Source of the DNA: Daphnia carinata
Taxonomy: Eukaryota
Assembly: GCF_022539665.2 (NCBI RefSeq)
Contig: NC_081333.1
Location: 12,276,001-12,340,000 of the forward strand
Direction: 5' to 3'
DNA length: 64,000 nucleotides
Positions 10,518 through 39,500 of this stretch are shown piece by piece. The notes under the pieces were generated by a model. It was not told where the DNA came from and did no database searches. It saw only the letters and a program-made list of their open reading frames with translations. Within the stretch, counting starts at the first letter, position 1. The number at the start of each line of letters is the position of its first letter. A program made the position numbers and the translations under genes.

Positions 10518-12410
10518 ATGTCAGTTTTCAAATATGCGTTTGTCTGGAACTGCATAAGTATTTTCATAATTATTTTTAATCCGACAACAAGTATTGCAAA
10601 TGAGCTGTCTGAGTGCATGGTCACCGGGCCAGGAATCATTCCCGATCGGGTGGTTCTTCCTGCTCGATATTTTTTCATACAGTCAACAGGAAGGTACCAT
10701 CACGGTGTTTCATGTAGACGTAAAGCATGTACAGTTTTATCTATTGATTTAGGTGTAATATTTCACAAGCCGAACTAGTTGTCGAGCTGAAAGGAAAATC
10801 TGAACATGGTCCTTGCAGAGTATGGACTCAGATACTTGATCGTCATGATGGAAGCTTCATTGTTCGCTACAAAATGTTCCAGGTGGGTTCAATAGCTAAT
10901 AACTTATCTTAGAACTCTAAACAATAAAAACAAATCATTCAGTACTGTGATGACATGGAAATTCATGTCATCTGGAAAGGCCATCATCTAGCTGAATCTC
11001 CCTACACTTATGAAGGAAGGATATATGCTGAAGCCTGTGATTGCCCACTAGACAACATTGATGAGATGATTGCTGCCTATCAATGTTCAACTGATGTTGT
11101 TCAGGTTGATAATGACCTTAGTCAATTCCACAATGTTGACTTCAACCAAGTTCTTAGTGAAGCGATAAAGAGATTCAGTCATGCAGGTTCTTACAGTTTT
11201 TGCCATTATGTGGTTCTTAATAATAAGGTAAATGTTCTGTACATAGTTATCATAACACGTAGTACAATTTTAGTGTTTCTCGAAAGGTACATCGTCACTG
11301 CTATGGCCAACATGTGGGATTCAACATGTTTATGGATAATATTCTGTTATCCATATCCCGTAAGGCAATCCTGCCTGACATGGAGTTTTTGATGAATCTT
11401 GGGGATTGGCCATTAGTCAAGAAAAATGTGCGACCAATCATACCAATATTCTCCTGGTGTGGATCAACCGAAACTGCTGATATTGTAATGCCGACCTATG
11501 ATATCACGGAAGCCTCATTGGAGTGTATGGGAAGGTTGTAAAACTGCTTTGCTTTCTGTGAAAAGAAAAAAAACTGACTTTTACTACTTTTTTTTACAGG
11601 GTAACTTTGGACATGTTATCTGTACAGTCCAATCCGGAAATAAGGTGGGAAAACAAACAAGATAAGGCTTTCTGGAGAGGAAGAGATTCACGTCGGGAAC
11701 GATTAAACTTGGTTAAACTTTCACGTCGTCACCCTGAATTGATCAATGCATCTCTAACCAACTTCTTCTTCTTTCGGGACGAAGAGGAGACATACGGACC
11801 GAAAGAGGACCACATTTCCTTCTTCAAATTTTTTGATGTAACTTTTATTGCTCAGCACTCCAAAAATTCTTCTTTAATTCAGAATTAACTTCATCGTTCG
11901 TGTCTGGTTTTAGTACAAGTACCAGTTGAACATAGATGGTACAGTAGCAGCATATCGCTTCCCCTACCTATTGGCCGGCGATGCCGTAGTGTTCAAGCAA
12001 GATTCCGAATACTACGAGCACTTTTATAGTGACCTCAAACCGAAAGTGCACTATATTCCAATCAAAGCAGACCTCAGTGACCTGGTTGAGGTGATTAAAT
12101 GGGCCAAGACTCACGACGAAGAAGTTCGACAAATCGGTGCTAATGGAAGGCAGTATGCCAGGAGTCACCTTTTGCCAAAAGATATTATTTGTTATCACGC
12201 CACCCTTTTTAAGGTTTTTTGCATACGAAGTAGATGTTTGATCTTTTAATTAACATTTTCTTTTTTGTCTTACTGCAGAAATGGAGCCAGAAACTCAAAA
12301 CTCCTGTTCGTGTTCGTGATCAAATGACTTTAGTTAAGCCGTCTAATTCGACGGACAAGCGGCTAGGTAGCTGCCAGTGTTCGAAGAAAATGACCCATAT
12401 GGAACTATGA
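10518..12410 (+). CDS. POGLUT2: Protein O-glucosyltransferase 2/3-like (KDELC family; filamin-type repeat plus CAP10/GT90 domain), about 7 exons
   Basis: Signal-peptide-like N-terminus followed by [82 protein letters not shown] and [18 protein letters not shown]...YYEHFY, all typical of KDELC1/2. The last exon (12279-12410) ends ...[11 protein letters not shown], a KDEL-like signal. POGLUT2 versus POGLUT3 is not resolvable. Confidence 0.92.
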
Positions 12411-12624: not shown

Positions 12625-15075
12625 CTATTCCAGGCCAGCGGTGTCTAATTCGCGGATAGAAGGCATTCTAAGTTGAAACTGAAATGCATCTTCGAGCGAT
12701 ATCAGTCTACAATGACTAATGTTCAGGTGACTCAGGTACCGCAATTGATACTTTTCAATAGCATTAAGAGTTAACTTGGTTAAATTTAGACAGCCCTTTA
12801 AAGAAATAAGTAAAATGATTAAGACACAAAGAGGAGTAACAATTCTTTGATACGTACATGCAGACTTAATCGCCTTAGTCTGGAGAGGTAACTTATTGCT
12901 TTTGTCATACCATAATCGGTAAATTTACCATAGTTCAAAATTAGTATTTCGATTCCACGATTTTGTTCGCTAAGTGCGACAAGTCCGATATCTGTTATCT
13001 GTAAGGACAAGAAATTGCGCAGCTTAAGTCGAACCCTCATCTCCAAAATAGCTTCAAGTTGATGTATACCAATGGACAAGCATTCAAATCTAGGTGTCGC
13101 AGTTCACGGAATCGAAAGGCATACTGCAAGCTTCGGTCTGTAAGTTTATTGCACCCGCCGACTGATAGGTGAATAAGACCTAATACAAAATTTTAAAAAA
13201 TCTAAACTCTACCTAGGAGAACCAAATCGGACATAATCTGCCAAACCTGAAAAGCTGTAGAACTCTGCCGGTGTACAGTTTTCCTTTAGTTTGCTACATG
13301 GAGCTTCAAGCGGTTTATCTTGGAAATTTCCATCGTCTTGAATAGCAAGTTTGGTCACCTGCGATAAGCGCTAATTCAAAAAATGTTTTAGAATTGGAAA
13401 ATCCTATTTGCAAACTACACCGTCAATTTGTCCGCGAAACCGTCATCAGTCAGAGAGATGCACCAGTCGAGAAGGAGTTCACGCAGATGCAACAGTGAAT
13501 TCAGAACAACCTTACCAATTGAGAATAAGATACGGTGAATGTAAAATAAGATTTCCTTTCTGATAGTTACCCGGAGACTGGAGTCTGAAACCGCCATTTT
13601 ACAAGAAGTAAGATTGAGGTGGGTTAAAAATGGAGAATTCTTCGCCAACTGATGTAATGTTTCCTCCACCATTCTGGTGTTGCTAAGGTTGATTTGCGTA
13701 AGTGTTTCGTTCCGTTTAGAAAGCAGACCGTTTTCGACACCTTTAAATCTCAGTTGAAAATGTTAAATACCCAGCACATTTGAGCAGAGATTCACCTAAG
13801 GAGGTTATGTTTTGAAGACCTTGCAGATTGACGTACGAAAGGTAACATAACTGGCTTAAATAGGAGATTCCCATGTCCGTTACTGCACGGCAGTTTTGAA
13901 TCGAGAGCTTTTGCAAATTGGGTAGTAAAGAACAGATGCTACTTAAAGCATTGTCTGTAATTCTAACGCAAGAACTAATATCGAGTTCGGTTAGAGTTGA
14001 TTGAGTAGCACAAAGACCACTGATTCCCGTGCTGCTTACTTCGCAGCTACGCAGTATGAGGCTATGGAGTTTTAGGCCAGCTACCTATTTTCGAAAAGGT
14101 ATGCATCAGAAATGAATCTAAATATCATTTTTACAAGTTATACCTTCGACAATGAGATGCACGCCTTGTCATCTATGAGCGTTTGACTAAAGTCAAGATG
14201 TTCGACCGTTTTTGAATGTTCGACAATATGCTGCAACATGCAGTCAAATGTTAAGACTAATTCAGATGATTTATTCTCTCCTTTGCCATTGTTTTTGGAA
14301 TAAAATTTCTTATTTATTCCAGGATGGAAGGATATGGTGGTTGCTGAGAAGCTTAAATATTTCAGGCTGACAACTAAAGCCATGAATCGATCGAGGAGGG
14401 CATCAGAGAAATAGGAACTGTTTTCTGAGAAAGCAAGTTTCTTTAAATTTGGCATGGCTAGTTTAATGTGGGACAAGACTAGGTCATTGCTGAAAAGTTT
14501 TCCAGTAATGAAAGTATCACGGCAGTTGTGAAAATGTAGGCTCTCCAGTGACTGGCATTGTAAAAGGAGGTTCAATAGATTGGCCTCTGTTATATAGCTT
14601 CCATGTATTTCTAATGACAAGAGATTTCGACTGATTTGGCTCCAGAACTCAAACAGACCAGGGGTACTGGCACTAAAATTTATTTCCTGCAAGGTATTCA
14701 TGTTTTATAAATTGTTTACATTACTAATAGTATACTAAATGTGACGAAATGAACAAGTGTTTCAGGTGTACCTGGATTTTTAGATCCTGCACAGGTTTTC
14801 TTGTCCATTGGAACACACAGGCAGCGTCATCCAAAGAATTTTCAAAAGTAATAACTACATCCTTCCACAGAGACATAGTCAGAGAGGCTTCGTACCACAA
14901 CAAACATATCGTTGAAGCGACCAAACGATCTGAAGGTTTAAGATATTTTAAGATCTTTTCGATTATCTAATAAATGCAATAGTTTTGTGAATTTCTGAAC
15001 AAGGGCGAAGCGAAAAATAGAAAAAAACAAAAAACATTTTCTCTTACTCACTTCAAGAGGTAATTTATCAGCCAT
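12625..15075 (-). CDS. F-box/leucine-rich-repeat protein (FBXL type, resembling LRRC29/FBXL9), multi-exon
   Basis: Exon 1 (15075-15052) MADKLPLE with donor GTGAGT splices to 14966 IIEKILKYLKPSDRLVASTICLLWYEAS, an F-box motif. Downstream exons (ORFs 14138..14701, 13415..13672, 12819..13079 and exons between them) give cysteine-containing LRRs such as LTHLNLTSC, LRELLLDWCISLTDDG and QITDIGLVAL. The last exon ends ...RMPSIRELDTAGLE-TAG at 12625. Confidence 0.88.
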
Positions 15076-15079
15076 AATG

Positions 15080-15087
15080 ATCAAAAT
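15080..15087 (+). repeat. Left copy of putative target-site duplication ATCAAAAT
   Basis: Identical 8-mer at 20090-20097 directly after the right end. It could also be read as a 6-bp TCAAAA or 9-bp ATCAAAATA duplication, depending on where the terminus is placed. Confidence 0.7.
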
Positions 15088-15273
15088 ATGGCAATCTGTT
15101 TTACATAAAAAAAATTAAAAAAATCGCACTTTTTTCTTTTTTCCGACACGTAGCCATCTACCGCTCAGACTCGTTATTACTGGCGTAGGCAATTTCAGTC
15201 CATTGGATGCCATACGCAGTTAGTTCAGTAGCATGGATGGAGAATAACGCGTGGCCGGAGGAACAAATGAAAA

Positions 15274-15850
15274 ATGGATAAGATAATACAACAAAAGGAT
15301 GGTAAGTATGAAGATTATTATATTGGTATTCAATTATTAATTATTGTTTATTAGATCAAATTATGAAGCTGCAGGCCCAATTATTGGAACAACACAAAAT
15401 ATTAGATAACAGCAAAGCTAAGGAGGGTAAGGCCTAATATGTAATGATTCTATTTATTTGCTTTTATTCATTCGTGTTTTGTAGCTCAAATTTTGAGTCT
15501 TCAAGCTCAGCTAGGGGAAAAGAACAAATTGGAACGGGACAGTTTCCAAACAGTGAAGGAGGTTTTTCCAAACTCATCCCTAACTGAACATGAGGATGAA
15601 TTGGCATTAGGCAAACACAGTCAGGTACCTAAACTTTTCAAATAAGAATTCAAAATAAGTATAGAATTTTAACAAACAATTATTTATTGTTTAGTTATTC
15701 AGTCTACCACCTGACAGTGTGTTAAAGTTAAATTCTTTTAGTGCTGCACTAAAAGAATTGTTAGTAATAAGTCCAAGCAGCAAAGGAACTGAAGAATTGT
15801 GGGACTGTATTTGGGCCGAAACTGGGTGTGGTATGGAAACACAGAAATAG
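15274..15850 (+). CDS. Putative spliced 131-aa protein with coiled-coil-like N-terminus carried in the left arm (may be the 5' part of a decayed longer gene)
   Basis: Exons 15274-15301, 15355-15426, 15485-15624 and 15695-15850 are joined by GT-AG introns of 53, 58 and 70 bp and stay in frame: MDKIIQQKD/DQIMKLQAQLLEQHKILDNSKAKE/AQILSLQAQLGEKNKLERDSF...KHSQ/LFSLPPDSVLKLNSF...GMETQK*. More exon-like blocks with splice sites but broken frames continue to ~16660. Confidence 0.5.
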
Positions 15851-16751
15851 CATGAGTTCAACATAAAACATGAATTAGGTACTTTTCGGTATTTTGTCTA
15901 TCGAAAAAGTATTTTTAATGCTATTATTTTGCATTCACAGAATTTTAGCAGGGGATCAAGTCAAGTCTGGAAGTGTTACAGGATGGAAGAGTGAGCCTAC
16001 AGTTGAAAAACACTGAAAGTGCATTACCATTAAGGTATGAGGTAAAGTAATAGAGTATGCAAATTGTCTAATGAGAAGTACCATCTTGTGTGAATGAATC
16101 CTGTGTAACAGCATTCCTTTATAGTTCTGTCACAGCTAGAAGCCTCAAATAATTCTGCTTCTCTTGCTAAAGAACAACTTGTCCTTTACATTCAGAGTGT
16201 TGGTGAAGCTGGGTACTTAAATGGCCCTAAAGATGTTTCATTTCGTTGGCATTGCAGCGATGAACATCATACATGGACTCTTTAGGTATGAAAGGAATTT
16301 TCTTGAAACTTTTTTTAATTTATGACAAAGCATTTCTCCTGCTTTTTGCCAACCATGTCTAATCTAGAAAAAAAAATTTATCCAATAGGAAAGGATTTTC
16401 AGCATACTGGGAACACAACTATCAACAATGCAACATTCTAGGGCTGCTATTTTATCATTCAAGAGCCTTATACAATGATTTTCATCTGCAATTTGTATGG
16501 CCTTTCCCAAGCTTCTGCCAGAAGTTGAATCTATAAGTCATGTAAGTCACATGAGCAACAATTGAGATGCTTAATGGTGTTGTTTTTCTTTTCTCAGCAT
16601 AGGTTAATAGTAACATTGAATCTGAAAAGATTCTTGGTTGGGGCAAGACACTGAATAAATTGTAATGATTGAATGGATGACATGACATTTCTATACTTAA
16701 TTTGGATTCCCGAGACGGTATTTTATATTTAAAAAATTGAAGTGCATATCT

Positions 16752-17115
16752 GGGCTCCCTTCCTTTCCGTAGCCCCGTTTCCCCTTGACTCGTAATAAGC
16801 CCGTAGGGGGTCATGCCCCTACTGTACGGTATATATAAAAACAACATATACCGAGGTTTGGAGGGCTCTGGCCGGAAAGGGGACGTGGGGGTCCGCTTAG
16901 TCCGATGATGTGTTCACGGAGGGCGAAGTGGCAACCCACAAATCCGAACTAAAGGTTAATCGCTCCTGTAAAAATGTTCCAAATCTTCAGCTCTTCTTCC
17001 GGCTTCTCTTAGCCAATCACCGGGTAATCTCCCCGGTGGGTCAACAAGGCAGTGTCTCCCCCTGCCTGGGTTGACGGCAACTTTTGAAAGGGCTATTGTG
17101 CCTTTTTAAAGTTGC
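16752..17115 (-). other. GC-rich multi-hairpin segment, left-arm copy
   Basis: Appears to be the exact reverse complement of 18048-18411. Confidence 0.5.
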
Positions 17116-17421
17116 AAAAATAATTGTAATGTGCAGAGAATTGTCAATAAAATTTTTTTTATAAAATATTTTTTGCAAAATTTGTTTCTTTCATTGTCTG
17201 TGTTAGCTGTGTTCACACATTATATTTATCAACTTTTTTTTTTTTTTTGCTTTGCTTTATTTGTTTTTGTCACCTTTGATGGTAAGCATTGTTTCCATTG
17301 GTTTATCGTTTATCTGTAAGTATTCAATTATTATTCATTACACTCTATGAATTCTTTAACTTAGATTCAAGGAACAATGTGTAACATCTGGATATTTTTT
17401 GGAAGTAATTTTGTAGTTTGT

Positions 17422-17494
17422 TTTACTCGTATGGGAACCGATCCCCAGACATTCAGCGTGTAACGCCGATGCTCTAACACTGAGCCACGAGATA
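17422..17494 (-). pseudogene. Degenerate tRNA-like sequence (anticodon position TAC, Val-like)
   Basis: Minus strand reads CTCG TGGCTCAGTGTTAGAGC A TCGGC GTTACAC GCTGA ATGTC TGGGGATCGGTTCCCA TA CGAG: D arm/A box, 5-bp anticodon stem with 7-nt loop, damaged T loop/B box, partial acceptor stem. Confidence 0.65.
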
Positions 17495-17589
17495 TATCTA
17501 AATATTTTATTATCGCATATCAAATGTTATCGTCTAGGATGTTTATGCAGTCTTTCACAGTTATATGTCTATCTTCTAATGCTTTCATA

Positions 17590-17660
17590 AGGTTCATAGC
17601 TCTGTGGAAGAGCCTTTAGCTGTGATACCTGTTACCCTTGGTTCAAACCTCAGTAGATGT
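17590..17660 (+). pseudogene. Highly degenerate tRNA-like sequence (A and B boxes kept, anticodon stem lost; GTG at anticodon position)
   Basis: TAGCTCTGTGGAAGAGC (D arm/A box) at 17597 and CTTGGTTCAAACCTCAG (T arm/B box) at ~17637-17653, at tRNA-like spacing. Confidence 0.5.
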
Positions 17661-17799
17661 GTGAAGATGTAAAATAGTAGTGAAGATGTAAGAAGTAAAA
17701 TAAATGTAGAAGAGTATATTGCAGAATTGCACATCAGTTTTATTCTAAGTGTAAATGCAAGTCCACAAGTCACTAGAAAAAAGCCAACTTGACATCATA

Positions 17800-17871
17800 T
17801 GATTCATGGCTCATTGGTAGAGCATCGGCGCGGTATGCCGAACATCCAGTGTTCGATCCCTGGATAATAAT
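17800..17871 (+). pseudogene. Degenerate tRNA-like sequence (anticodon position GGT, Thr-like)
   Basis: TGGCTCATTGGTAGAGC (A box/D arm), perfect stem TCGGC-GCGGTAT-GCCGA, and CCAGTGTTCGATCCCTGG (T arm with B box GTTCGATCC). Acceptor stem poorly paired. Confidence 0.7.
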
Positions 17872-18047
17872 AAAATGTTTACACATAAACGATAAACCAA
17901 CGGAAACCAATGTCACCTTACCATCAAAGGTGACAAAAACATATAAAACAAAGCAAAAAAAAAAGTTGATAAATGAAACAAATTTTGCAAAAAATATTTT
18001 ATAAAAAAAATTTTATTGACAATTCTCTGCACATTACAATTATTTTT

Positions 18048-18411
18048 GCAACTTTAAAAAGGCACAATAGCCCTTTCAAAAGTTGCCGTCAACCCAGGCA
18101 GGGGGAGACACTGCCTTGTTGACCCACCGGGGAGATTACCCGGTGATTGGCTAAGAGAAGCCGGAAGAAGAGCTGAAGATTTGGAACATTTTTACAGGAG
18201 CGATTAACCTTTAGTTCGGATTTGTGGGTTGCCACTTCGCCCTCCGTGAACACATCATCGGACTAAGCGGACCCCCACGTCCCCTTTCCGGCCAGAGCCC
18301 TCCAAACCTCGGTATATGTTGTTTTTATATATACCGTACAGTAGGGGCATGACCCCCTACGGGCTTATTACGAGTCAAGGGGAAACGGGGCTACGGAAAG
18401 GAAGGGAGCCC
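18048..18411 (+). other. GC-rich multi-hairpin segment (candidate structured RNA or ssDNA element), right-arm copy
   Basis: Consecutive stems at 18048-18086, 18088-18123, 18125-18145, 18211-18266 (enclosing two small hairpins), 18310-18336, 18341-18360 and 18361/18411. Paired by eye, no folding program run. Confidence 0.5.
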
Positions 18412-19311
18412 AGATATGCACTTCAATTTTTTAAATATAAAATACCGTCTCGGGAATCCAAATTAAGTATAGAAATGTCATGTCATCCATTCAATCATTA
18501 CAATTTATTCAGTGTCTTGCCCCAACCAAGAATCTTTTCAGATTCAATGTTACTATTAACCTATGCTGAGAAAAGAAAAACAACACCATTAAGCATCTCA
18601 ATTGTTGCTCATGTGACTTACATGACTTATAGATTCAACTTCTGGCAGAAGCTTGGGAAAGGCCATACAAATTGCAGATGAAAATCATTGTATAAGGCTC
18701 TTGAATGATAAAATAGCAGCCCTAGAATGTTGCATTGTTGATAGTTGTGTTCCCAGTATGCTGAAAATCCTTTCCTATTGGATAAATTTTTTTTTTTAGA
18801 TTAGACATGGTTGGCAAAAAGCAGGAGAAATGCTTTGTCATAAATTAAAAAATTTTCAAGAAAATTCCTTTCATACCTAAAGAGTCCATGTATGATGTTC
18901 ATCGCTGCAATGCCAACGAAATGAAACATCTTTAGGGCCATTTAAGTACCCAGCTTCACCAACACTCTGAATGTAAAGGACAAGTTGTTCTTTAGCAAGA
19001 GAAGCAGAATTATTTGAGGCTTCTAGCTGTGACAGAACTATAAAGGAATGCTGTTACACAGGATTCATTCACACAAGATGGTACTTCTCATTAGACAATT
19101 TGCATACTCTATTACTTTACCTCATACCTTAATGGTAATGCACTTTCAGTGTTTTTCAACTGTAGGCTCACTCTTCCATCCTGTAACACTTCCAGACTTG
19201 ACTTGATCCCCCACTAAAATTCTGTGAATGCAAAATAATAGCATTAAAAATACTTTTTCGATAGACAAAAAACCGAAAAGTACCTAATTCATGTTTTATG
19301 TTGAACTCGTG

Positions 19312-19886
19312 CTATTTCTGTGTTTCCTTACCACACCCATTTTCAGCCCAAATACGGTCCCACAAGTGTTCACTTCCTTCGCTGCATGGACTTATTACTA
19401 ACAATTCTTTTAGTGCAGCACTAAAAGAATTTAACTTTAACACACTGTCAGGTGGTAGACTGAATAACTAAACAATAAATAATTGTTTGTTAAAATTCTA
19501 TACTTATTTTGAATTCTTATTTGAAAAGTTTAGGTACCTGACTGTTCGCCTAATGCCAATTCATCCTCATGTTCAGTTAGGGATGAGTTTGGAAAAACCT
19601 CCTTCACTGTTTGGAAACTGTTCCGTTCCAATTTCTTCTTTTCCCCTAGCTGAGCTTGTAGACTCAAAATTTGAGCTACAAAACACAAATGAATAAAAGC
19701 AAATAAATAGAATCATTACATATTAGGCCTTACCCTCCTTAGCTTTGCTGTTATCTAATATTTTGTGTTGTTCCAATAATTGGGCCTGCAGCTTCATAAT
19801 TTGATCTAATAAACAATAATTAATAATTGAATACCAATATAATAATCTTCATACTTACCATCCTTTTGTTGTATTATCTTATCCAT
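19312..19886 (-). pseudogene. Right-arm copy of the spliced coiled-coil gene, frameshifted
   Basis: Same exon/intron layout, but exon 3 ends GGCGAACAGTCAG|GT versus GGCAAACACAGTCAG|GT in the left arm (2 nt shorter), which brings an early TGA into frame in exon 4. Confidence 0.5.
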
Positions 19887-20089
19887 TTTTCATTTGTTCC
19901 TCCGGCCACGCGTTATTCTCCATCCATGCTACTGAACTAACTGCGTATGGCATCCAATGGACTGAAATTGCCTACGCCAGTAATAACGAGTCTGAGCGGT
20001 AGATGGCTACGTGTCGGAAAAAAGAAAAAAGTGCGATTTTTTTTTTTTTTTGGCGAAATTTTTTTTTTGTGTGTAAAACGGATTGCCAT

Positions 20090-20097
20090 ATCAAAAT
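20090..20097 (+). repeat. Right copy of putative target-site duplication ATCAAAAT
   Basis: Matches 15080-15087. Confidence 0.7.
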
Positions 20098-20120
20098 ACT
20101 GATTGCAGAATATTATGAGG

Positions 20121-21430
20121 TATGGCAATCCGTTTTACCCAAAATAAAAATAAAAAATATTGGCCTTTTTTTTCTGTTTTACTGCTATCGTCATCTAACG
20201 ATCACGTTTCTAGTTAATTCTCTACATACACTGACAGAAAAATTTTTTAAGCCCGATTTTCTGTTTTTTACGGTTAATTCAAAAACAAGAAGCCTGATAT
20301 AAAAATATACCCCATTTTCGTGATCAGCGATCAGTTTCGAATCGGAATAATGTATTTTTAATGAAATCTAGGATTTGAAGAAAATTGGAAGAGTGGGAAG
20401 GCCTTCTTACTTTTTCAATTTTGGCAAAATTTTTGATTTCGCCTTAAATACATGGTTTCGATGCAGAATTGAACGGGCATCACGAATATGAGGGTTGTTT
20501 TCTCGTGGGACTCATAGTTTTTGAATAAGATGTAAAAAACGATAAAAGTTGGAGAAAAATAAGCCCGGGCTTATATTGTCGGGCTTAAATTTTTTTCCTA
20601 TTAAAAAATAATCGCATTATCTAGATAACTATAGATGATTCTGATTCAAAATTAATCAAGGAACACGAAAATAGAATTTGTTTTTACGTAGGGTTTATAG
20701 TTTTGGAGTAATCTAAAACATAAAATTAGTGTGTGTGCGAATCATTACTAGCGCGCCAGTACGCTACAGCGCCAGCGTGACACATCAAACTTCGTTGATT
20801 ATTCAAACACCATAAACGCTACGTAAAAACAAATTTCATTTTCGTGTTCCTTGTTAAATTTTGAATCAGAATCATACATAGTTATCTAGATTTAATGATA
20901 CTATTTTTTAATAGGAAAAAATTTTAAGCCCGACAAAATAAACACGGCCTTCTGTTTTTTACGATTAATTCAAAAAGCGGAAGCCTAACATAAAAATATA
21001 CCCCATTTTCGTGATCGGTGATCAATTTCGAATCGGAATACTGTATTTTTAATGAAATGTAGGATTTTACGAAAATTGAAGAAGTGAGAAGGCTATGTAT
21101 GGCCTTCTTACTTTTTTATTTTTAGCCAAATTTTAAATTTGGCTTAACATCAACTACATCATATTTATTCAGTGTATTTCAAAAGCAATTGATTTTATGA
21201 AAAAACGAGTCAATTTTTCTGAATCAACATTAAATTCTGAGTATACCGTGTGATTTTAAACGTATTCCACGAAATTTCGATTTTTGTCTGATTTTGACAA
21301 AAGTGAGAAGGCTATATAGCCTTCCCACTTTTTCATTTTTGGCCAAATTTCAAATCTGGCTTAAAATATATGATTTTGATGCAGAATTGAATGTTAATTA
21401 CGAAAATCAAGTCTATTTTTCAATTAGCCA
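20121..21430. mobile_element. Second, probably truncated, non-autonomous DNA element sharing the foldback's terminal sequence, with internal direct and inverted repeats
   Basis: Starts TATGGCAATCCGTTTTAC, the exact reverse complement of 20073-20090. It has diverged direct repeats (~20257-20450, ~20949-21147, partial ~21301-21420) and a palindrome (~20575-20713 versus ~20797-20940). No matching right terminus found; end coordinate approximate. Confidence 0.7.
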
Positions 21431-26445: not shown

Positions 26446-27741
26446 TTAATCGGAATAAGGTGACCTTTCACTTCGGTCGGATCGCGGAGAATTGCTCTGA
26501 TTTTCAGATATAATTACACTCCCTAACTCGTTCTCCTGTTTGACGACGCCTCCTGCGCCTCCGCCGCTGCCAGGGCTCGTGTGGTGTAGGACGATGTTGG
26601 GGGTCGAATGATAGGCCGCATACCCCGCCGGGTTCATTGGCTCCAGCGGTGCGGATTGGGCCGATCCGCCAGCCGCTGCCAGTAGGTTCATTCCAGGAAA
26701 TACGGGGTAATCCGGCCGGAGGAAACTCCCGGCCAAAAAACTAGACGCTCCGTAGCCAAAAGCTGCGGGGAAGTAGCTGGATTGTATGGGAAACATTGGA
26801 GGTCGGGACGAAGATCCGGTCATACTTCCAGCATTGGGGAAACCGCTTCCGACTGCCGATAGGCAATTCTTCCATTGCAGAGACGCTTCCGCTTGCTGAT
26901 GAAGATGGTGCTGATGGTGATTGTATCGCGGCATCTGCTTTTCTCGCGTTCCAGATGACGAATGTTGTAACGATTTGCGTTTATGTTGATGATTTCCAGC
27001 CGGAGGTCCTTCCGCGTTCACCGCGTTAGTAGTTAACGTGTTGTTGATGTCCGGCTGCGGATTGTTGTTGTGGTAGACGAGCTGTTCGATGGCCCGCAGT
27101 ACATCTCCATCACATCTATCCAGAGTAGACTTGAGCGTGGCTCGTTTAGTCTGCGGGAAAAGTCTGGCGAGAGTGTCCAACGGTGCTCTTTTACTTGCTG
27201 CTTCCGGCTCGCTACCTCCGCCGCCCCCACTAGTCGCATCCAGCGCTGAAGCGTTATCGTCCACATCGGGAAGATCGAATTTCGTCCTATCAGATGGTAA
27301 TTCCGGTTCGTCTTTTACGCGAAACGGATACAAATAATTCGAAGTAATTAACTCGTACGTTTTTTTACAGTTTAAAGAGCGAGGGGGCGATGTGGAAATA
27401 ATTAATAATTAATAAAAGAAATAATACAAAAGGACGATGATAATGCTCAGATGTCCTACTGTACTATATTCCCTATTGACATGGCTTCTACATTCGCATT
27501 CCACGGATGCAATTGTTGAGGCCAGCTGCTTCACAGAATACGCTACGCCATAAAGCTCTTTCTTTCTTTTCTCTTTTGATGGATCCATATGAATCCATCG
27601 CGTGATGAAGTCAGTCTCGCCCTCATATTCCCTGTGCTCCAGAGGCCAACGCCAGGCCTAAATGCCATCGTCCATTGTTATCATCCCTTTTCAATAAAAA
27701 TTGTTAAGGATGCTGGGCTGAGAAGTCGCGCGTTGGCGGAT

Positions 27742-27775
<34 letters not shown>

Positions 27776-30528
27776 AGTAGCCTATATCAGTCGCTCATTC
27801 AAACACTTTTCACTTCCCCCAGCATCAACATCTCCGTACTGGGGAAATATAAAAAAAAAAAAAGAGAAAGAAAGACAAATTCCTTCTTGCTGTATGGTGC
27901 CGTGGCAATATACACATATATGCTGATATGTCTGTATATGTGTAGATATTTCAAAAGCGGATATAGATAGGGCGAGGTGTCGAGAGGGGCCATTTATTGC
28001 CGTCGACTGCCGAATCAATCTCAATGAATAAATTGCTGCTACTCTCCTCTAACAATGTGAAATGAAAAGAGGAGCTCTCTTCCATCAGCTATACTAGGAC
28101 ACGAGTAAGATGTAAAGAATGATAATATAAAGAAAGAGAAAAAAAAAACTAGGGTATCTTTGTGTTCGGCGAGATTCTTCAATGTCATTATCTCTTTAAT
28201 ATCGCAGCGAAATGTTCTATTTTGATACGATTTTCATTCGCAGTTTGAATGGATATCAAAAGGACGAGTTCAAATGCCTTGCTGTTTTTAAGTCAATTAT
28301 TTCTTTTTAACGATTCATGGCGTTTTAGAAGAGCGGGGACTGATATGTAAGAGGCAAAACGAAACGATAGAAAGCTCCCACAAAACGCACATTGAGACAC
28401 TTCATTATTTCATTATCCAGCAGCCGCATACCAAATGAACGCGATCATAAAGAAAAATCTATTTCACAACTCGCTTTGAAGCACATCCTAGACCACCTAT
28501 ATAATAGCGACTGATTGATTTGTTTGATGCCTAATCAACACGCACTACCTCATCACTTACACGTTTATCGATAATTCTAAAATGAACTAGTCATACGGGT
28601 TTCTACCTGTTGGATGGCTGTGGTTGTCGGAATCTCCCGCATCGTCCGAATCCGAATCCATCAAAAGCGGACTCTTGGGCGACATGCTGTTATTGCTCAT
28701 CTTAGAGGCTCTGTTGGTTCCAGGAGAAATGGGTTCGACAGGTCCTAGCAAACCCTCGCCCTTTCTGTTCACGAAAGAATGATAATGTGGCGATTCGTCT
28801 CGTTCGTTTGCGGTCGTACAGTTCAAAGATAACGATCCAGGCGGATGTTGGCCAGCTTCACGGCCAGAAAAGTTCAATCTTTTCACGCTGCTTTCGTAGC
28901 CGTTATTGGCAGACGAGTCGCAAATGGGTTCTCCTCTATTGGCGGATTTCCCACCGCTTCCGCTCCGATCGCTCATCGAGCGACTAGGAGATTCTTGACC
29001 GGTCGGACCTTGTGAACCAGCTTGTTGGCTCATGTTATTTATCCCGCCTGAAGGGACAGTATAGAGCAGCCCTAATTCTCGAGCCTCGTTCTCCTCCTAT
29101 TGAACATTAGAAACAAAAATAGTTTAGACGTTAGATTCATGGCATAATGAATGGCTTTGTAAGTTCGTTTTAAAGAGTCATCTCATCTAAATAAGCTTGT
29201 TATAACAAACAAACCGCTCTCGACAATTGCCTATGTTAAGGGGCCCCAGAAATCAAGTAGGATCGGGAATCTATACTATTGCGTAACGAATCGTTTCCTA
29301 GAGCGGACAGCCCGTCGCTGGTTTCTACTTACAGTACACAAATTCTAAGATGCTGATGGGTGGAGATGAAACACCACCACTCATCCGATCTTGCGTGATT
29401 GATTATAAAAAGGATCACATTAAAACGGGGCTGTTTTCGACGAAAAAGGGAACTAGTTTGCGGCGCACGGATAACCCTTTGAACTGGTCGCAATGACGCC
29501 GACCATTAAACCATCCCACACAAACAGAATAGGCCTATATGTCTGGCAGGGTAAAGAAAATAAGCTTCATATTCAAACTATCCTTCATCTCTCCAAAAAC
29601 AGGGCAGTCCTTTAGTAAAGCCTGGATTTCTTTGATTGAGAATGACGGAAGGCACATGATTTTGGCTTTCACTCGAAATTTCAATTTCATTCGTCTGATG
29701 GAAAGCCCCCCCCCCCCCCGCAAGTTCATTAACTGCACACGCGTATAGGCCTACTTGTAGAATCGTCAACACACAATTTAAATAATTAATACTGAGCCTT
29801 CAAAATTGTTAAAACTGACGACACAAACGGAAAAAAAATTGAAAGAAAAGAGTTGAGTGCCGAGTAATAAAACATTCTCCACGACAAAAGACAGAAGATA
29901 TCGACGATCCGCATTTATCGCACGTTCCGTTCCAGTACATCAAAGTGACCCATTTTTACCGGCGGAAATCAACGCCGATTGTTTTGCAAAAAAAAAAAAC
30001 GAGTTTCATTTTTCAAAACAATCCCTTTTGTCTCACCTGGGCTTGTTGCCTGCGGAGAGCCACCTGAGCGGCCATAACGCGCTGCCTTTCGGCTATGAGA
30101 GTGCATTTAGCGCATGCACAATCACGCCAGCGACAGTAGCGTTTGTGTCCTTTCAGAGCAGAGACGACCCCGTGATTACGACACCTAGCGCACTTGGGCG
30201 TCCGCTGGTAGCGCTCGGATGCGCGGAGGAGCATAGCGGCCGCGGCCGCTGCCGCCGTCGGAGGAATCCCTCCGTGATGGTGATGATGATGACCGGCATG
30301 GTGTTGGCCGTGATGCTGTTGGTGATGGCCGTGGTGTTGATGCGGTGAACCCATGTGTCCAGCAAGTCCGGCAAAGAAGCCATGAGGGCTCATCATGCCA
30401 TTAGCTCCTGATCCGGGACCGGTTGCGCCACTTGCGCCGCTTCCGTCTCCGCTGGGGACTTGATGGCCGCTGTTACGATGCGATGACAGATCCATGACTT
30501 TGCCTTCACTATTGATAGGCAACTTCAT
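26446..30528 (-). CDS. Dmrt99B: Doublesex/mab-3 related transcription factor, Dmrt99B/DMRTA2 class (DM plus DMA domains), 3 exons
   Basis: Exon 1 (30528-30037) has [65 protein letters not shown]. Exon 2 (29096-28607) continues [12 protein letters not shown]. Exon 3 (27311-26446) has the DMA domain [40 protein letters not shown] junctions with compatible phases (0, 1). Confidence 0.93.
27743..27773 (+). repeat. Poly-G tract (G31) in Dmrt99B intron 2
   Basis: Counted directly; longest G/C homopolymer in the window. Confidence 0.9.
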
Positions 30529-33500
30529 TATTTAAAAATTCTAACTGGCTTATTACATCATCTGGCAGTCAGACAATTACTTCCACTAGAGGTAAGCATG
30601 TCACGATGTCAGTAAATAAAATTGAGATCATGGCCTAAAAGAATGGATGTGTTGATTAATCTTACGCTGTAATTGCTTGCCAACTGCCGCTTGTTTTCGT
30701 TGGAAGACGCTTGTTGATGGAGAACAATCAACTCGAATAGAAGACAACGTAATCACTTTTCAAACAAGCAGACAACAAACAAAAAGACAAATGCCACGCT
30801 AGTACACTCTCATTGCCAATACGGGGTGTGCCTATTTTTAATAACGCGCAGCAAAAAAAAAACAAATGGTTCCTCTCCGGTGCAACGTTGATGACAAACT
30901 GTGTCGGCGAGGAATAAAGTTTTTCGTTATTATGTGTGGAACCACCCAGAGATGTTTGAGTGCAACGTCTATTTACCCAGTTAGCTATAGCTGGTGATGG
31001 TGCGGCATCGGTCCCGACAGTTCACACATGTGTGCATTAGACGAGAGTACAGTTTATGTAAAGAGTGCGGATGGAAGGCCAGCCCCTAAACGATTGCCAT
31101 TGGTTCAACTGTCGTTGCGTCTCAAAATTGGCCGTCCACACACAGACACCAAACAGCGTCGAATGGTGCGTATGTGCGCTGTACAATATAGTGTGTAGTA
31201 CACAGTAGACATCTATTATACGGTAGACGATCAACGTAACCGCTTGTGATCGTTTCATTATCATCTCTTTTGAGACTGCGCATCAGGGTGGCGCGGCGGA
31301 AACCTGCCCATTCAGAAGCATAAAAGGTGAAAAAAAAAAGTATTTGTTCGCTTTGGCATGTTGTGATGTTCTTGTTTATTTAAATCAAAACGGGTGTGTG
31401 TTATTATACATGTATACTTCTTAGGTGGTCTTTTTTTTTTTCTTTCTCTTTCTCACCCTTCAATATTTCCTTTTTTTATCGCCAGTTTTCTTTTCACCCC
31501 CTCGTACGTTTGCATGCGAATCGTTTGATTATAATAGATTGCAAGGTGTGAAATATGATCTTTCTCCGTGGTTTCACTCCTCTCTATAGTCTACATGTAT
31601 TCACATGAATTGTACGTAGAAACAGAGGCCTATTGTTACACGCAAAGATTTTTCCTTTTGTGCCCTCACCTACCATTTATTAAGGGTGGAAAAATGAGTC
31701 ACAAAGCCTTCAAGTTTTGACATTAATAATACCATACAAACTTAATATTCCAATTTTTCGTTCCTTGAGTTCAACTGTTTTTAGCTGAGAAACATATCCC
31801 GACAGAAATAGGCACTATAATTCGTTACGGACGTCATATAAACATACGAACAGTGATAATTTCCCAGTGTGATTGAGTTTGCGAGCAGTGGTTAATATTG
31901 AAAGGAAACAATGATTTTGGCCATGGATATTTGCAATAATCGAAATGCAAGAAGAAGAATCCCATTATCAACACTGTCTCTGCCGTTTCCTGAACTACAA
32001 ACAGTTTGTTAGCAACAATCTGAACCCACAAATGTAATATAAAAAAAGAACGTGCCTATTATAAAAATAAGAAGAGTTTGCCCCCTCATGTGGAGTAGGA
32101 AATCAACCTCCCCTGAATAAAAAAATATATATATATACGTGGAAAATAAAAAGAAAGAAACGTAGGAAGTTTGTCAAGCAGTTGCGGTTGATGAGGGTCG
32201 TTCATTGAGCACTGAACAAAAAGAAGATAAAAAGCGAGTTAGATGTACACAGTACATTATATTGTACACATTAGACACTGCATTTTCTCGAGTGGTATAC
32301 AGTGGTGACATTCTATATGCTTTTCAGTCAGCGAGCAAAAGCGAGCGGTTTAATCAAACGTGATGAACTACTGGAAGCCCCTGGCTGCTGAGCTTGTTGT
32401 CGTCGTACCCTTCACATAAAGACACATATATCCACACACACATACGTATGTATATATGTACACAGTACGCTGGGGGTGGACGTCGGCGACGCAACATGTT
32501 ATATGTATTTTAAAAAAAGAAAGAAAAAAAAAGTTCTCTGCGTTGCGCATACCGAACTCCCCTCTACACCCCCAACCGCTGCTGGTTCGGAGACAAAAGC
32601 CCTTGAATTCACACACATTAGTAGATCTGAAAAAAAAAGGAGGGGTGGGCAAGCAGTCTGCTGGGCAGGGAGCATCAGGACACATTATATTATTATTGAG
32701 AAAACTTGAACAATGAAGCAGTATGGCTATATACTTTTATCATTACGTCATATTCAATATCTGCGGCGGAGAGCGCCCCGCAATATAGACACGACGCGAA
32801 ACGTTTTTTTTTTTTTTTAAACAGGGAAAATAAAAGGATAAAAATTATACGTTTTTAAACGTGGTGCTGGTGTAATGGTAACCGCTGGAACTCTCGTCCT
32901 AATCGACCGCCCATATAGAACTACAAATGTGGATGTTGAAAATGAGGGCCACATATTATATACATGCTTCCTTGTTGTGTATAACTATCTCTTTTTTTTT
33001 TTCTTCTTCTTTCTAGGTTTCTATAGGAGAGCAGGATGGATGACATTACATCGCCATTATTTGGGGTAAAATAGAAAAGAAAAAAAGAAATTGTCGGGTA
33101 TTACTTTATAAACGTCTCTCACACTCTGTAAAAACTACAGATGAAAGAATGGAAAATGGGAGGAGTTTGTTGCTTTATTTCCCCACCATCTCGCCTTGTT
33201 TCCATCTAATTCTAGTATTTACATCGGTGGTTACGTCTAAATACTTCACTCGTCAAAAAGGCTTTATTTCTTTATCGTTCTTCCTTTCCTTTCCGTTTCA
33301 TTCTTGTTCAGCCTCTCAGACGCCATAGTATTTAGACATCTGTGGGTTCCGTCATTTACGCCATTCAAAGAATCCCTTGTAGTATTATTTTTATACATGT
33401 ACATTAAAAATTATACCATTCTTCTGATGCCTCCTCCTCTCATTTGTTTATTTAGACGACCTTTGTTTCCCCCCTTTTCCTCGACACAATTGCTGGTGGA

Positions 33501-36500: not shown

Positions 36501-39500
36501 AACATAGCCGCCATCCAGCGGCGGAAGGCGGAGGACATCGTTCCGTTCTACACCCCCGCCTATCGCGTGCCATCCGCAACAGTATTTAACGCACATTTAC
36601 ATGTTCAGGTGGCAGACGCATTTTCATTCATTGCTTTGAAATTAGAAGGGATCATTTACGGTTGAAATTACTAAAGGTATCATTAACGAAAGTTCGCGAA
36701 ATTGCTTCGTTACATGTACGCAATTGTAAATAAAACGTTAGTGGTACTAGCTAAAGGTCGCGTGACAACTGAGAGGCGTGGACGAAAACCCCACGGTGGT
36801 TTTTCGTGTAATCGAAAGCAATTGACAATATAACTTGGCGCTTTCTTAGTTTTAAAACATGTAGCAGACCTTAAACTACCGAGACTAGTGATTTTAGCTT
36901 ATTTTTATGCACTGTTATGCAACTAGCTAATAGTCAATGAATCGCGGTTACATAGATAATTCTTAACGGTTTCTAGCTAACCTTGCTTTGAACACGAGAC
37001 TCCTCCTTTTGGGCTGCTCTAGCTGAAGTTGAACCATCTCCTGGAGCTGGCCAGCTGTGAAAAGACGAACAGAGTAGTGTTTGCTTTCGATCCATGTCTT
37101 AAGCACAAGCACAAGCACACACTTGAAAGCCATTTGTAACGTGTTTGCATAGGAGCAAAGCAAAACGAATCCTTTACGTGTTCACGACACAAATGAAAGG
37201 CTAGTTGGCAAACTCTTACCACTAGCGCTTGAACTGTCACAGGCACATGCATTTGAGACAACACTTGTTCTTAGGACGACACGAACTGAACTGCTGGGGG
37301 GCGGCACGTGTTTCGTTTAGCAAAATTTCAAAGGGCACCTTGAGGTAGAGGTAGAGTAATGAAAAACTGCCACGTAAAGGAGAAAAAAGGCGGTCAACGA
37401 TGGACTTTTGATCCCCCTTCCCTCTATTCCTGCTTCCTGGAACTGTCAAAACAAAAAAGGTAATGAAAAAACAATTAGCTGTGCCGATGGGCTAACTGAA
37501 AAACAACCACTTGAGGCGATAAAACAGGTGAGACTTAAACCCAATGAACACCGCCTGCCTATACGTCACTTTGAAAATTCGCCATTTGAAAAAAATAATT
37601 CGGTTAGTTGCCTCTTCACAATGCACGCAACCTACGTTAACAAACTACACGAAGACCGTACAAAAAGAAAATTAGTATATACATAAAAACTCTAAGTGAA
37701 TAAATTTTGGCTAAGCTTAAATTCGAATAGCGTCACGAAAATTACGTGTCATGAATGCGGTTTCGTTCCAGCCGCTGAAAATATCAAATAATTATTAATT
37801 ATTATTCAATTTAATCAAAATTAGAAAAGCAAAGCCCAGTTATTGCAGTGGTTGCATGGCCCACTTGAAATTTCCCTTTAAAATAACCGCCGTGGAGACT
37901 TGAACATAAGGCATATAGAACGGCATTCCTACGCCATACCGCCGAGCCATCTCCTATGCAAAAGGTGTAAATAAGCTCCTTATTTATACAGGTGATCCAA
38001 AAGAAATGTTTTGTTGGAGTGTGCGGACCTGGCACAGTGGCTATCGCCATTCCCTTGTAATCAGTTTCCCCAGGTTCGGTTCCCGCCACCTCCAATTGCC
38101 AAATTCCACGCCCTACTCCTCCTCCCTCCTCCACGCCCTCCCTCCCATTGTATTCATACATGTTACGTCATCAAGTCATCTTCAACGAAGATATTCATCA
38201 AGAACTATGGCCTAAAAAGGCCAGCTAAAAATACTACCACATTACAAGAAAACAAACAATACTACACGTATGACACTCACAACAACTCAACACGTATACA
38301 GACGTTTCACAACTACACGTTGAAGATCGACCACGTAGGTAGAGAAGAGATAATCGTAGCTTGTAGGTTGTTGGTAAGTCTCCCTATGGCCACTAGGTTC
38401 ATGGATGCAGGCAGCTAATCGTCGGGCTATGTGACCCTCTTCAATACCCGTAAGTTTTTTGTTGGTTGTGACTGTATCTACCACCACACTACCACCGACA
38501 CCCGCAATTCTTTTTCCCATACACAACATATCTACGAATAGTGTTGTATAATAAATAAATTGTAATCTAGTATTCTATAACAGTGCATTACATAACATCG
38601 TTTGGCACAAATGCTTTGGGTAGCGCTGGCATGTTTTCTGTCTATGCTTTTGAAGGCTTCCGTAGGCATAAGTTTCCATCATGGGCGGTAGAAGCGGTCA
38701 TAAGAGATAAGGCTGAATTTCTCTTTGAACGCCTTGTTTTGGAACACTGTGCGCCATCCGTTGGTTTCTCTAACATGGTTGATGGTTGCCAATACAGCAA
38801 GGCTATCGTTTGTGCTACCTTCAACTAGATGGCATACATCTCCATATAAGGTTCGTTTCCCGAACGCTATTCCGGGCGGATTCATAACCGCACGGAACAA
38901 TAATGCAGCAGCACCATATGGGTCGTACCGTCGATAGCAACAGCGGCAAACGGAATGGGCTACTTCTGGTAAGTTATTCGGTCGGTAGCTTTAAAAATTC
39001 AAGCGACAAAACTATTTATGGGACGTGAGAACGCGACGTTCCCAAATAAAAATGTATGAATGTCGCAGGTTCACAAACATTTTTTTTGCAAGAATGATAT
39101 GTAAAAACGAGAAGAATATGATGATAAGCAACCCCTCTCCCCCCCACTGACTCAATCGATTTTAAATTCTAGTTACGTTCCCGAGGCCCATTTGTATCAT
39201 GCGAATGCAGCCCACCCGAAATGTGGCATGGTCAATATTTGCATAATGGCTCCGATTTATGAGTAGCCAACTGGCAGAAAACAAATCACCCGTCTTCTAA
39301 ATTCAGGTTCTTTCGTTTTTCTTCTACGTCTTCTTCTACCAAAACACATAGCCCGTCACCGTCCGTTAAATTTTCCATCCAATTTCGGCGAAAAAGTCTC
39401 CGACAATTTCATCAGTTTCATCGTCCGTCTTGACTTTATAGAGAGAATAAAGTCAACCGAAAAAGGAACTAAACAAAGCGGCCAGAAATGAAAAAAGAAA

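Follow-up and report, generated by a model that had tools for sequence, protein, structure and literature searches.

Introduction

Long terminal inverted repeats (TIRs), together with target-site duplications (TSDs) of 8-10 bp, are described as features of Mutator-like elements (MULEs; PMC5225508), and Pack-MULEs are reported to carry gene fragments between their TIRs (PMC6431247). In the Helenus elements, as their description has it, tRNA-like promoters lie within direct long terminal repeats (LTRs; PMC10886601). In yeast, TFIIIB and TFIIIC are reported to block Pol II at nearly half of the tRNA genes; these roadblocks act mainly against Pol II that arrives from the 5' side of the tRNA genes, and the antisense side is without a peak in that account (PMC5052057). 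In mouse, an antisense MIR transcribed by Pol III is described as pausing Pol II (PMC5358760), and for Mu killer of maize a hairpin RNA has been proposed (PMC3440606).

We analysed a stretch of 64,000 nucleotides of Daphnia carinata DNA (the window, to which all coordinates refer), in which three related tRNA-like Pol III promoter units had been predicted from the sequence. In the literature that we searched we found no description of the element that holds these units, or of tRNA-like promoters inside any TIR element; the element may have an entry in a repeat library. The words "carinata" and "MULE" are absent from the main text of a survey of crustacean transposable elements (PMC12241861). 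Our favoured explanation, which we hold tentatively and with slightly less than even confidence, is that the units are decayed tRNA-like modules in a palindromic transposon, the outer two of which would be outward-facing Pol III promoters that block Pol II.

Results

A 5.0-kb palindrome flanked by a short direct repeat

The units occupy the 520-bp centre of a 5.0-kb palindrome (15088-20089), which consists of a left arm, a long TIR of approximately 2.2 kb (15088-17337, plus strand), and a right arm (17861-20089, minus strand) that holds a second copy of a gene and a mirror hairpin array. The two arms are 95.8% identical over 2274 columns, indels included, with 2/385, 18/478, 2/417, 0/821 and 9/149 substitutions in successive segments, the last of which adjoins the spacer. 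The second of these segments (15473-15950, 478 bp) alone holds 18 of the 31 arm-arm substitutions, and 821 bp further inward are identical, a pattern that suggests patchy conversion, either between the arms or with other copies.

The palindrome is flanked by a direct repeat (15080-15088 on the left, with its mate at 20090-20098 on the right, both read on the plus strand), which measures 8 bp if the element starts at 15088, and 9 bp with one shared base. The chance of an 8-9-nt repeat in that register is approximately 0.001 for this single insertion, and the repeat is likely to be a TSD. With TIRs far longer than 100 bp and a flanking repeat within the 8-10 bp of MULE and foldback elements, and with no transposase domain identified in the arm gene in Pfam and PDB searches, the palindrome is likely to be a non-autonomous foldback or Mutator-like DNA transposon; this class is read from the TIRs and the flanking repeat, and, no autonomous partner having been found, the superfamily is provisional. 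TSDs of 8 bp also fit hAT or P elements. An older nested foldback element (20121-21420) lies 31 nt from the right end and has the same terminal motif as the palindrome, suggesting related ends and a single superfamily. At the level of DNA ends, this related terminus (at 20122) was identified; the dispersal of copies is read from the gene family.

Between the left end of the palindrome and the apparent start codon of an F-box/LRR gene (12625-15075, minus strand) lie 13 nt, with the palindrome on the upstream side; the element likely interrupts the 5' UTR of this gene and displaces its promoter by 5 kb. Other neighbours in the window are a glycosyltransferase family 90 gene, near 10900-12400, and a gene at 26446-30531 (minus strand), which we take from a motif in its translation to be a DM-domain (Dmrt-like) gene.

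A broken, spliced and multicopy gene in each arm

The left arm contains an eight-exon orphan gene (15274-16663, plus strand) that points inward and is broken. Its first four exons lie at 15274-15301, 15355-15426, 15485-15624 and 15695-15878, and the remaining four at 15941-16041, 16112-16285, 16389-16541 and 16603-16663, all on the plus strand. The spliced frame comprises 304 codons and is interrupted by 4 internal stops, whereas the other frames contain 24 and 27; in the right-arm copy, exon 3 has lost a further 2 bp. Run X1 contained joined forms at introns 1, 2, 4, 5 and 6, with 5 of the 12 joints ending in CT..AC, and loose ends that join exons 3 and 4 across intron 3; intron 7 is modelled only. 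This run is recorded as "DNA?", and we read it as likely RNA from the intron joints themselves, intron-less DNA copies also being possible. Among the 912 X1 contigs aligned, we identified spliced forms of many variants of the arm gene.

One exon of the arm gene matched P0002, an "uncharacterized protein" of D. carinata, whose relatives form 15 clusters with 96 member sequences, a count in which isoforms may be included. Every named row among these relatives is from D. carinata, and they are spread over large contigs of ten different lengths, from 7.9 to 14.4 Mb; D. carinata has ten chromosomes. In 3 of 46 rows one protein is given from two consecutive LOC numbers, as paired identical neighbours on paired arms would give. 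The 55 members picked by script are 102-180 aa long and end at several different points. Over the last four exons (15941-16663), the frame remains open for approximately 160 codons past the stop at which most annotated copies end, with two further stops, so the ancestral protein was probably approximately 300 aa long.

We could not find a relative of this longer ancestral protein. Comparisons with longer proteins gave 5 candidates for exon 6 and 387 for P0002, none of which was confirmed, and a search of 1.84 billion representatives returned P0002 only, beside one repeat protein at an E value of 3e-6 that we set aside as spurious. Nothing significant was found for the arm gene in Pfam and PDB, the best match in the Atlas (0.76, GCR1_C) was under the noise level, and the AlphaFold prediction for the protein has a pLDDT of 53. 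A search of viral contigs with the protein alignment gave 39 candidates, none of which was confirmed.

The coding differences between the two arms comprise 3 synonymous and 13 non-synonymous changes, a dN/dS of approximately 1 on small numbers, and the arm gene looks neutral by this measure. We infer that it is defective cargo, carried by a dispersed DNA transposon of the non-autonomous kind. We also considered stop-codon read-through and restorative editing of this gene, and rejected both, because the stops vary among relatives (W, Y or a stop at the first, a stop or a frameshift at the second), because dN/dS is approximately 1, and because no unit carries a suppressor anticodon. The original prediction had missed that the arm gene is spliced and multicopy, and this gives the tRNA-like units a concrete possible role.

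Three tRNA-like units at the centre of the palindrome

Unit L (17494-17422, minus strand) has TAC at the anticodon position, with one mismatch in the A box and two in the B box. Unit M (17590-17662, plus strand; GTG) has one mismatch in each box and keeps the D-stem, with an unpaired anticodon arm, and unit R (17800-17872, plus strand; GGT) also has one mismatch in each box and keeps the D and anticodon arms, the acceptor stem being absent. The positions, strands and triplets of all three are as predicted. The A-to-B box spacing, which is tRNA-like, is 43 in each, and the box mismatches total 3, 2 and 2 in L, M and R. The prediction also had all three units pointing outward, which is true of L and R, each of which faces its own arm; M points to the right arm from a position 200 bp behind R.

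Using A-box and B-box consensus motifs, we identified 5 sites in the window with a spacing of 42-44 and at most 3 mismatches, compared with a mean of 0.4 (maximum 2) in 60 order-1 resamplings, and 3 sites with at most 2 mismatches compared with 0.07. At the wider spacing of 38-55, the excess of box pairs over the whole window was not significant (7 versus 3.6, maximum 8). The window also contains a second back-to-back pair of A/B-box units at a spacing of 43 (37884-37956, minus strand, and 38023-38095, plus strand; the 37949/38030 pair), which lie approximately 80 nt apart. The plus unit of this pair has a perfect A box and is followed by 425 nt free of T4, as are 2% of random starts; the pair has no Rfam tRNA match, no match to a model of the three central units and no repeat or palindrome around it, indicating that such pairs occur outside this anatomy. 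The same three-unit model (R2) identified no further unit in the window, this pair included.

When paired in the canonical register, the three units together retain 100% of D-stem, 73% of anticodon-stem, 67% of T-stem and 62% of acceptor-stem pairs, compared with 33-46% for the whole structure in slid registers. The D-stem and acceptor values support the view that the boxes have been kept better than the acceptor stems, as predicted. Pair covariation among the three units was not above that of shuffles (49-122 of 500 for the covariation measures). Unit L folds into a cloverleaf-like structure with a short acceptor stem, and folding z-scores are -2.2, -0.8 and -0.5 for L, M and R.

The units could in principle be three captured, working tRNA genes (Val, His and Thr), and the cloverleaf fold of L is a point in favour of this. 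ARAGORN, which called no tRNA by default, found L as its sole match when relaxed to 90%, and L and R among 9 matches at 85%; M was absent even among the 32 matches at 80%. For the Rfam tRNA family, whose cut-off is 29 bits, the covariance-model check gave a sub-threshold signal for L (23.9 bits, E 0.055), another for R (21.5 bits, E 0.26), and none for M at E values up to 10. The head pattern was found at 4 metagenome loci, all prokaryote-type tRNA arrays without any other match to the window, and genes of such arrays can carry the same start from D-arm to anticodon stem, these loci having been selected by the pattern. Against this reading, however, stand the sub-cut-off scores, the broken acceptor stems where a functional tRNA has one of 7 bp, a T arm that is one base out of register in both L and R where a canonical one is expected, a C in place of U before the anticodon of R, and anticodon triplets of M and R that differ in other copies, as seen in shallow contigs. 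The reading is already largely refuted and we consider it extremely improbable, in agreement with the prediction that the units are not working tRNAs.

M, which keeps its boxes and D-stem only, fits another alternative, in which the units would be untranscribed TFIIIC-binding barrier sites that separate the arm genes or shield them from heterochromatin. B boxes have established barrier activity. Barriers would be expected at the ends of an element rather than at its centre, however, and A boxes, A-tracts and T4 runs suit transcription better, leaving this a quite improbable explanation. It is, by comparison, very probable that the units are degenerate tRNA-derived modules in a TIR element.

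A probable shared origin of the outer units

The original prediction held that the units look like diverged copies of one ancestor. For the outer pair we confirmed a shared motif, a 13-nt exact word, and a shared anticodon stem, with different anticodon loops. The best window of L and R is identical at 22 of 25 positions, which is reached by 3 of 120 pairs of unrelated tRNAs, and the 13-nt word by 2 of 120; the background here is made of the pairs among 16 unrelated metagenome tRNAs, which are of prokaryote type and not those of Daphnia. Over the whole length, 11.7% of the same 120 pairs equal the score of L and R, so that similarity alone gives moderate support. The two homologous arms each have one of these units at their inner end, and approximately 85 extra bases separate the head of L from its arm. 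Common ancestry of L and R, as one unit duplicated with the arms, is moderately supported by this position, by the 22/25 window and by the shared T-arm shift. Kinship of M with the outer pair is more weakly suggested: M matches R at 10 of 12 positions from -5 to +7 (binomial p 7.5e-5, in one of 27 segment comparisons), and matches L no better than random tRNAs do.

We found no TSD around the head and tail of either L or R, the longest shared words being 6 nt and not adjacent to the head. Independent SINE insertions are therefore not indicated.

From the arm gene to the units: hairpins, candidate poly(A) signal and putative terminators

Each arm has the same order of features when read inward, namely the gene, a hairpin array and an AATAAA, followed on the other strand by a T4, an A-tract, a short body and a tRNA-like head. 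In the left arm, the hairpin array lies 3' of the gene (16780-17120, plus strand; z-score -4.2 on the inward strand and -3.3 on the outward strand), likely in its 3' UTR, and is followed by an AATAAA (17146-17151, plus strand) that is a candidate poly(A) signal of the gene; a second AATAAA is at 16654. The mirror hairpin array in the right arm lies at 18040-18380. G-U pairs in the array favour the inward strand, and the array has no Rfam match. Over part of the array, pieces from two wetland metagenomes differ from it at 0 of 162 nt and at 5 of 254 nt, compared with 5-8% in other pieces, and the array is possibly a cis element of the transposon. A 21-mer from the hairpins had no match in metagenomes, and a pattern scan of viral contigs likewise returned none.

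Downstream of L, the body, the A-tract (17234-17249) and the first T4 (17180-17177) occupy 17177-17421 on the minus strand. Downstream of R, the corresponding features (A-tract at 17955-17964, first T4 at 17983-17986) occupy 17873-17986 on the plus strand and mirror the inner end of the left arm. The first T4 lies 307, 141 (at 17738) and 176 nt from the A box of L, M and R respectively, and all three units thus have the downstream T-run terminator of a type-2 Pol III promoter in addition to A and B boxes at tRNA-like spacing. In the window, 6% and 19% of random starts are followed by T4-free lengths of 307 and 176 nt, so such runs are not rare. The first T4s after L and R occupy mirrored sites, each 29 nt away from where the AATAAA ends, so that the predicted Pol III RNAs would meet the arm mRNA tail to tail.

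This layout bears on a third alternative, in which the palindrome would be a silencing locus of the Mu killer kind, where read-through, or Pol III RNAs that continue past the T4, would give double-stranded RNA that targets the whole family. In having an element end and its gene duplicated in inverted orientation, with 821 identical bp near the centre, the palindrome has the layout described for Mu killer (PMC3440606), and the units do face the genes antisense. The first T4 precedes the poly(A) region of the gene, however, so the predicted Pol III RNAs would barely overlap the mRNA; in addition, X1 contains many variants in spliced form, and the family is young and dispersed rather than confined to one locus. 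We regard a silencing locus as improbable.

Contigs of X1 cover L and R with few differences (in record 7, 1 difference over 66 nt). Among the rows listed, none records a difference inside L, compared with 12 substitution rows and 6 indel rows in the adjoining 41 nt (17378-17418), which fits a promoter role for L. Two shallow contigs (depths 2.4 and 3.4) derive from another copy of the centre with approximately 92% identity; both have M and R anticodon triplets that differ from those of the window, and in both the A-box GG of M and R starts with C instead of G, which argues against strict conservation of the boxes, though these may be errors. The summed depth in X1 is high over L, R and the arm sides and approximately 2-3 in between, with an adapter loose end at 17484, a contig that starts at 17806 and a lack of cover over 17668-17743; as contigs carry no information on start, strand or level, none of this was counted as evidence. 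Small shares of runs X2 and X3 did not cover the spacer, and no contig aligned from run X4, which is of the same sample as X1, a result from which we draw no conclusion. One further X1 contig (record 6) matches 17747-17863, the spacer and unit R, and then seems to pass into GC-rich sequence that is unrelated. This contig may be chimeric, represent a variant element, or come from the locus that was the source of the head.

The main rival to the favoured explanation is a passive relic, in which a SINE-like unit, or a small cluster of tRNA pseudogenes, was acquired before the inverted duplication and is now only riding along. The head, body and A-rich tail of L and R, which M lacks, are the anatomy of a tRNA-derived SINE; M is strongly decayed, other copies differ in the A-box GG, and unrelated sequence follows R in one shallow contig. 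The arm gene also looks neutral, and the cargo need not therefore be selected. Conversely, the head and tail have no TSD of their own, the D-stem and A box are kept in all three units while the acceptor stem and anticodon loop drift, and the rows listed for L contrast with those of its variable flank. A passive relic is possible, and on this evidence we think it fairly unlikely.

Discussion

Under the favoured explanation, of outward Pol III promoters that block Pol II, one arm, with its end, gene, hairpins, poly(A) signal, T4, A-tract and head, would have been duplicated in inverted orientation; L and R would then descend from one unit and have diverged at the centre, the region in which the arms resemble each other least. 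TFIIIC and TFIIIB would occupy both units, from which Pol III would transcribe outward RNAs of approximately 320 and 190 nt that end at the T4 beside the poly(A) signal of the arm mRNA. A Pol II that reads through across the centre would be stopped by the head-on Pol III unit; if not stopped, its transcript would be a 2.2-kb hairpin RNA, which would expose the whole family to silencing. As the heads are back to back, a crossing polymerase would run head-on into one of them and reach the other from its 5' side.

Judged from sequence features, it is evenly balanced whether at least one of the units would be an active Pol III promoter, the two mismatches in the B box of L speaking against it. That a blocking role has been selected seems doubtful: the arm genes already have an AATAAA, and they would approach the units from the antisense side, the one that lacks a peak in the yeast account. 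We further consider it unlikely that the transposon family has domesticated tRNA-derived Pol III units as an anti-silencing device, in which back-to-back promoters at the fold would stop Pol II, and genes that face one another would be expressed without hairpin RNA.

Long perfect palindromes with inward-pointing genes are expected to be self-silencing, by way of hairpin RNA. A Daphnia genome with dozens of these elements, whose central Pol III modules vary naturally, would offer a test of tRNA-like units as Pol II roadblocks in an animal, and of how mobile DNA evades RNA silencing. Even if the units are passive, dozens of D. carinata "uncharacterized protein" models are explained as the cargo of one mobile element, and an F-box gene is marked as having an insertion 13 nt upstream of where its coding sequence appears to start.

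Compared with known systems, the palindrome shares with Pack-MULE and foldback elements, as these are described, long TIRs, an 8-9-bp flanking repeat, the lack of a transposase, a gene cargo, dispersed gene copies, and insertion at the 5' end of a gene (PMC5225508, PMC6431247). It differs from them in that the 2.2-kb TIRs are themselves the cargo, with a whole spliced gene in each, and that Pol III modules fill the centre. Mu killer of maize is likewise an inverted duplication of an element end and its gene; in its description it is a single locus that contains duplicated transposase sequence and exerts silencing in trans (PMC3440606), whereas our element belongs to a dispersed family and has Pol III modules at its fold and a gene that is not a transposase. 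Dada, known from the water flea Daphnia pulex, is also a DNA transposon associated with small RNA genes; it is described as having no TIRs and as inserting into the RNA gene (PMC3706591), whereas in our element the TIRs are long, the units lie inside it, and its flanks are not halves of an RNA gene.

The units resemble tRNA-derived SINEs in their head, body and A-tract, and the antisense MIR reported in Polr3e in that an antisense Pol III unit faces a Pol II gene; in contrast to these, they have no TSD of their own, lie inside a TIR element with the arms of which they are duplicated, and are placed after a poly(A) signal rather than, as in Polr3e, in an intron (PMC5358760). Finally, Helenus (TRIMp3; PMC10886601) and Cassandra are similarly non-autonomous and carry a Pol III promoter derived from a small RNA, in which anticodon and isotype disagree. 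These elements are described with direct LTRs, a primer-binding site, a polypurine tract and TSDs of 4-5 bp (PMC10886601), whereas our element has inverted repeats and, at its centre, units that face outward. Helenus is recognised by two direct LTRs that hold tRNA-like sequence and, in animals, by a 4-bp TSD; we found no direct repeat extending around M and R, and the flanking repeat is 8-9 bp. If the anti-silencing reading holds, the palindrome would be the DNA-transposon counterpart of promoter capture by Cassandra and Helenus, with the captured promoter serving termination rather than copying.
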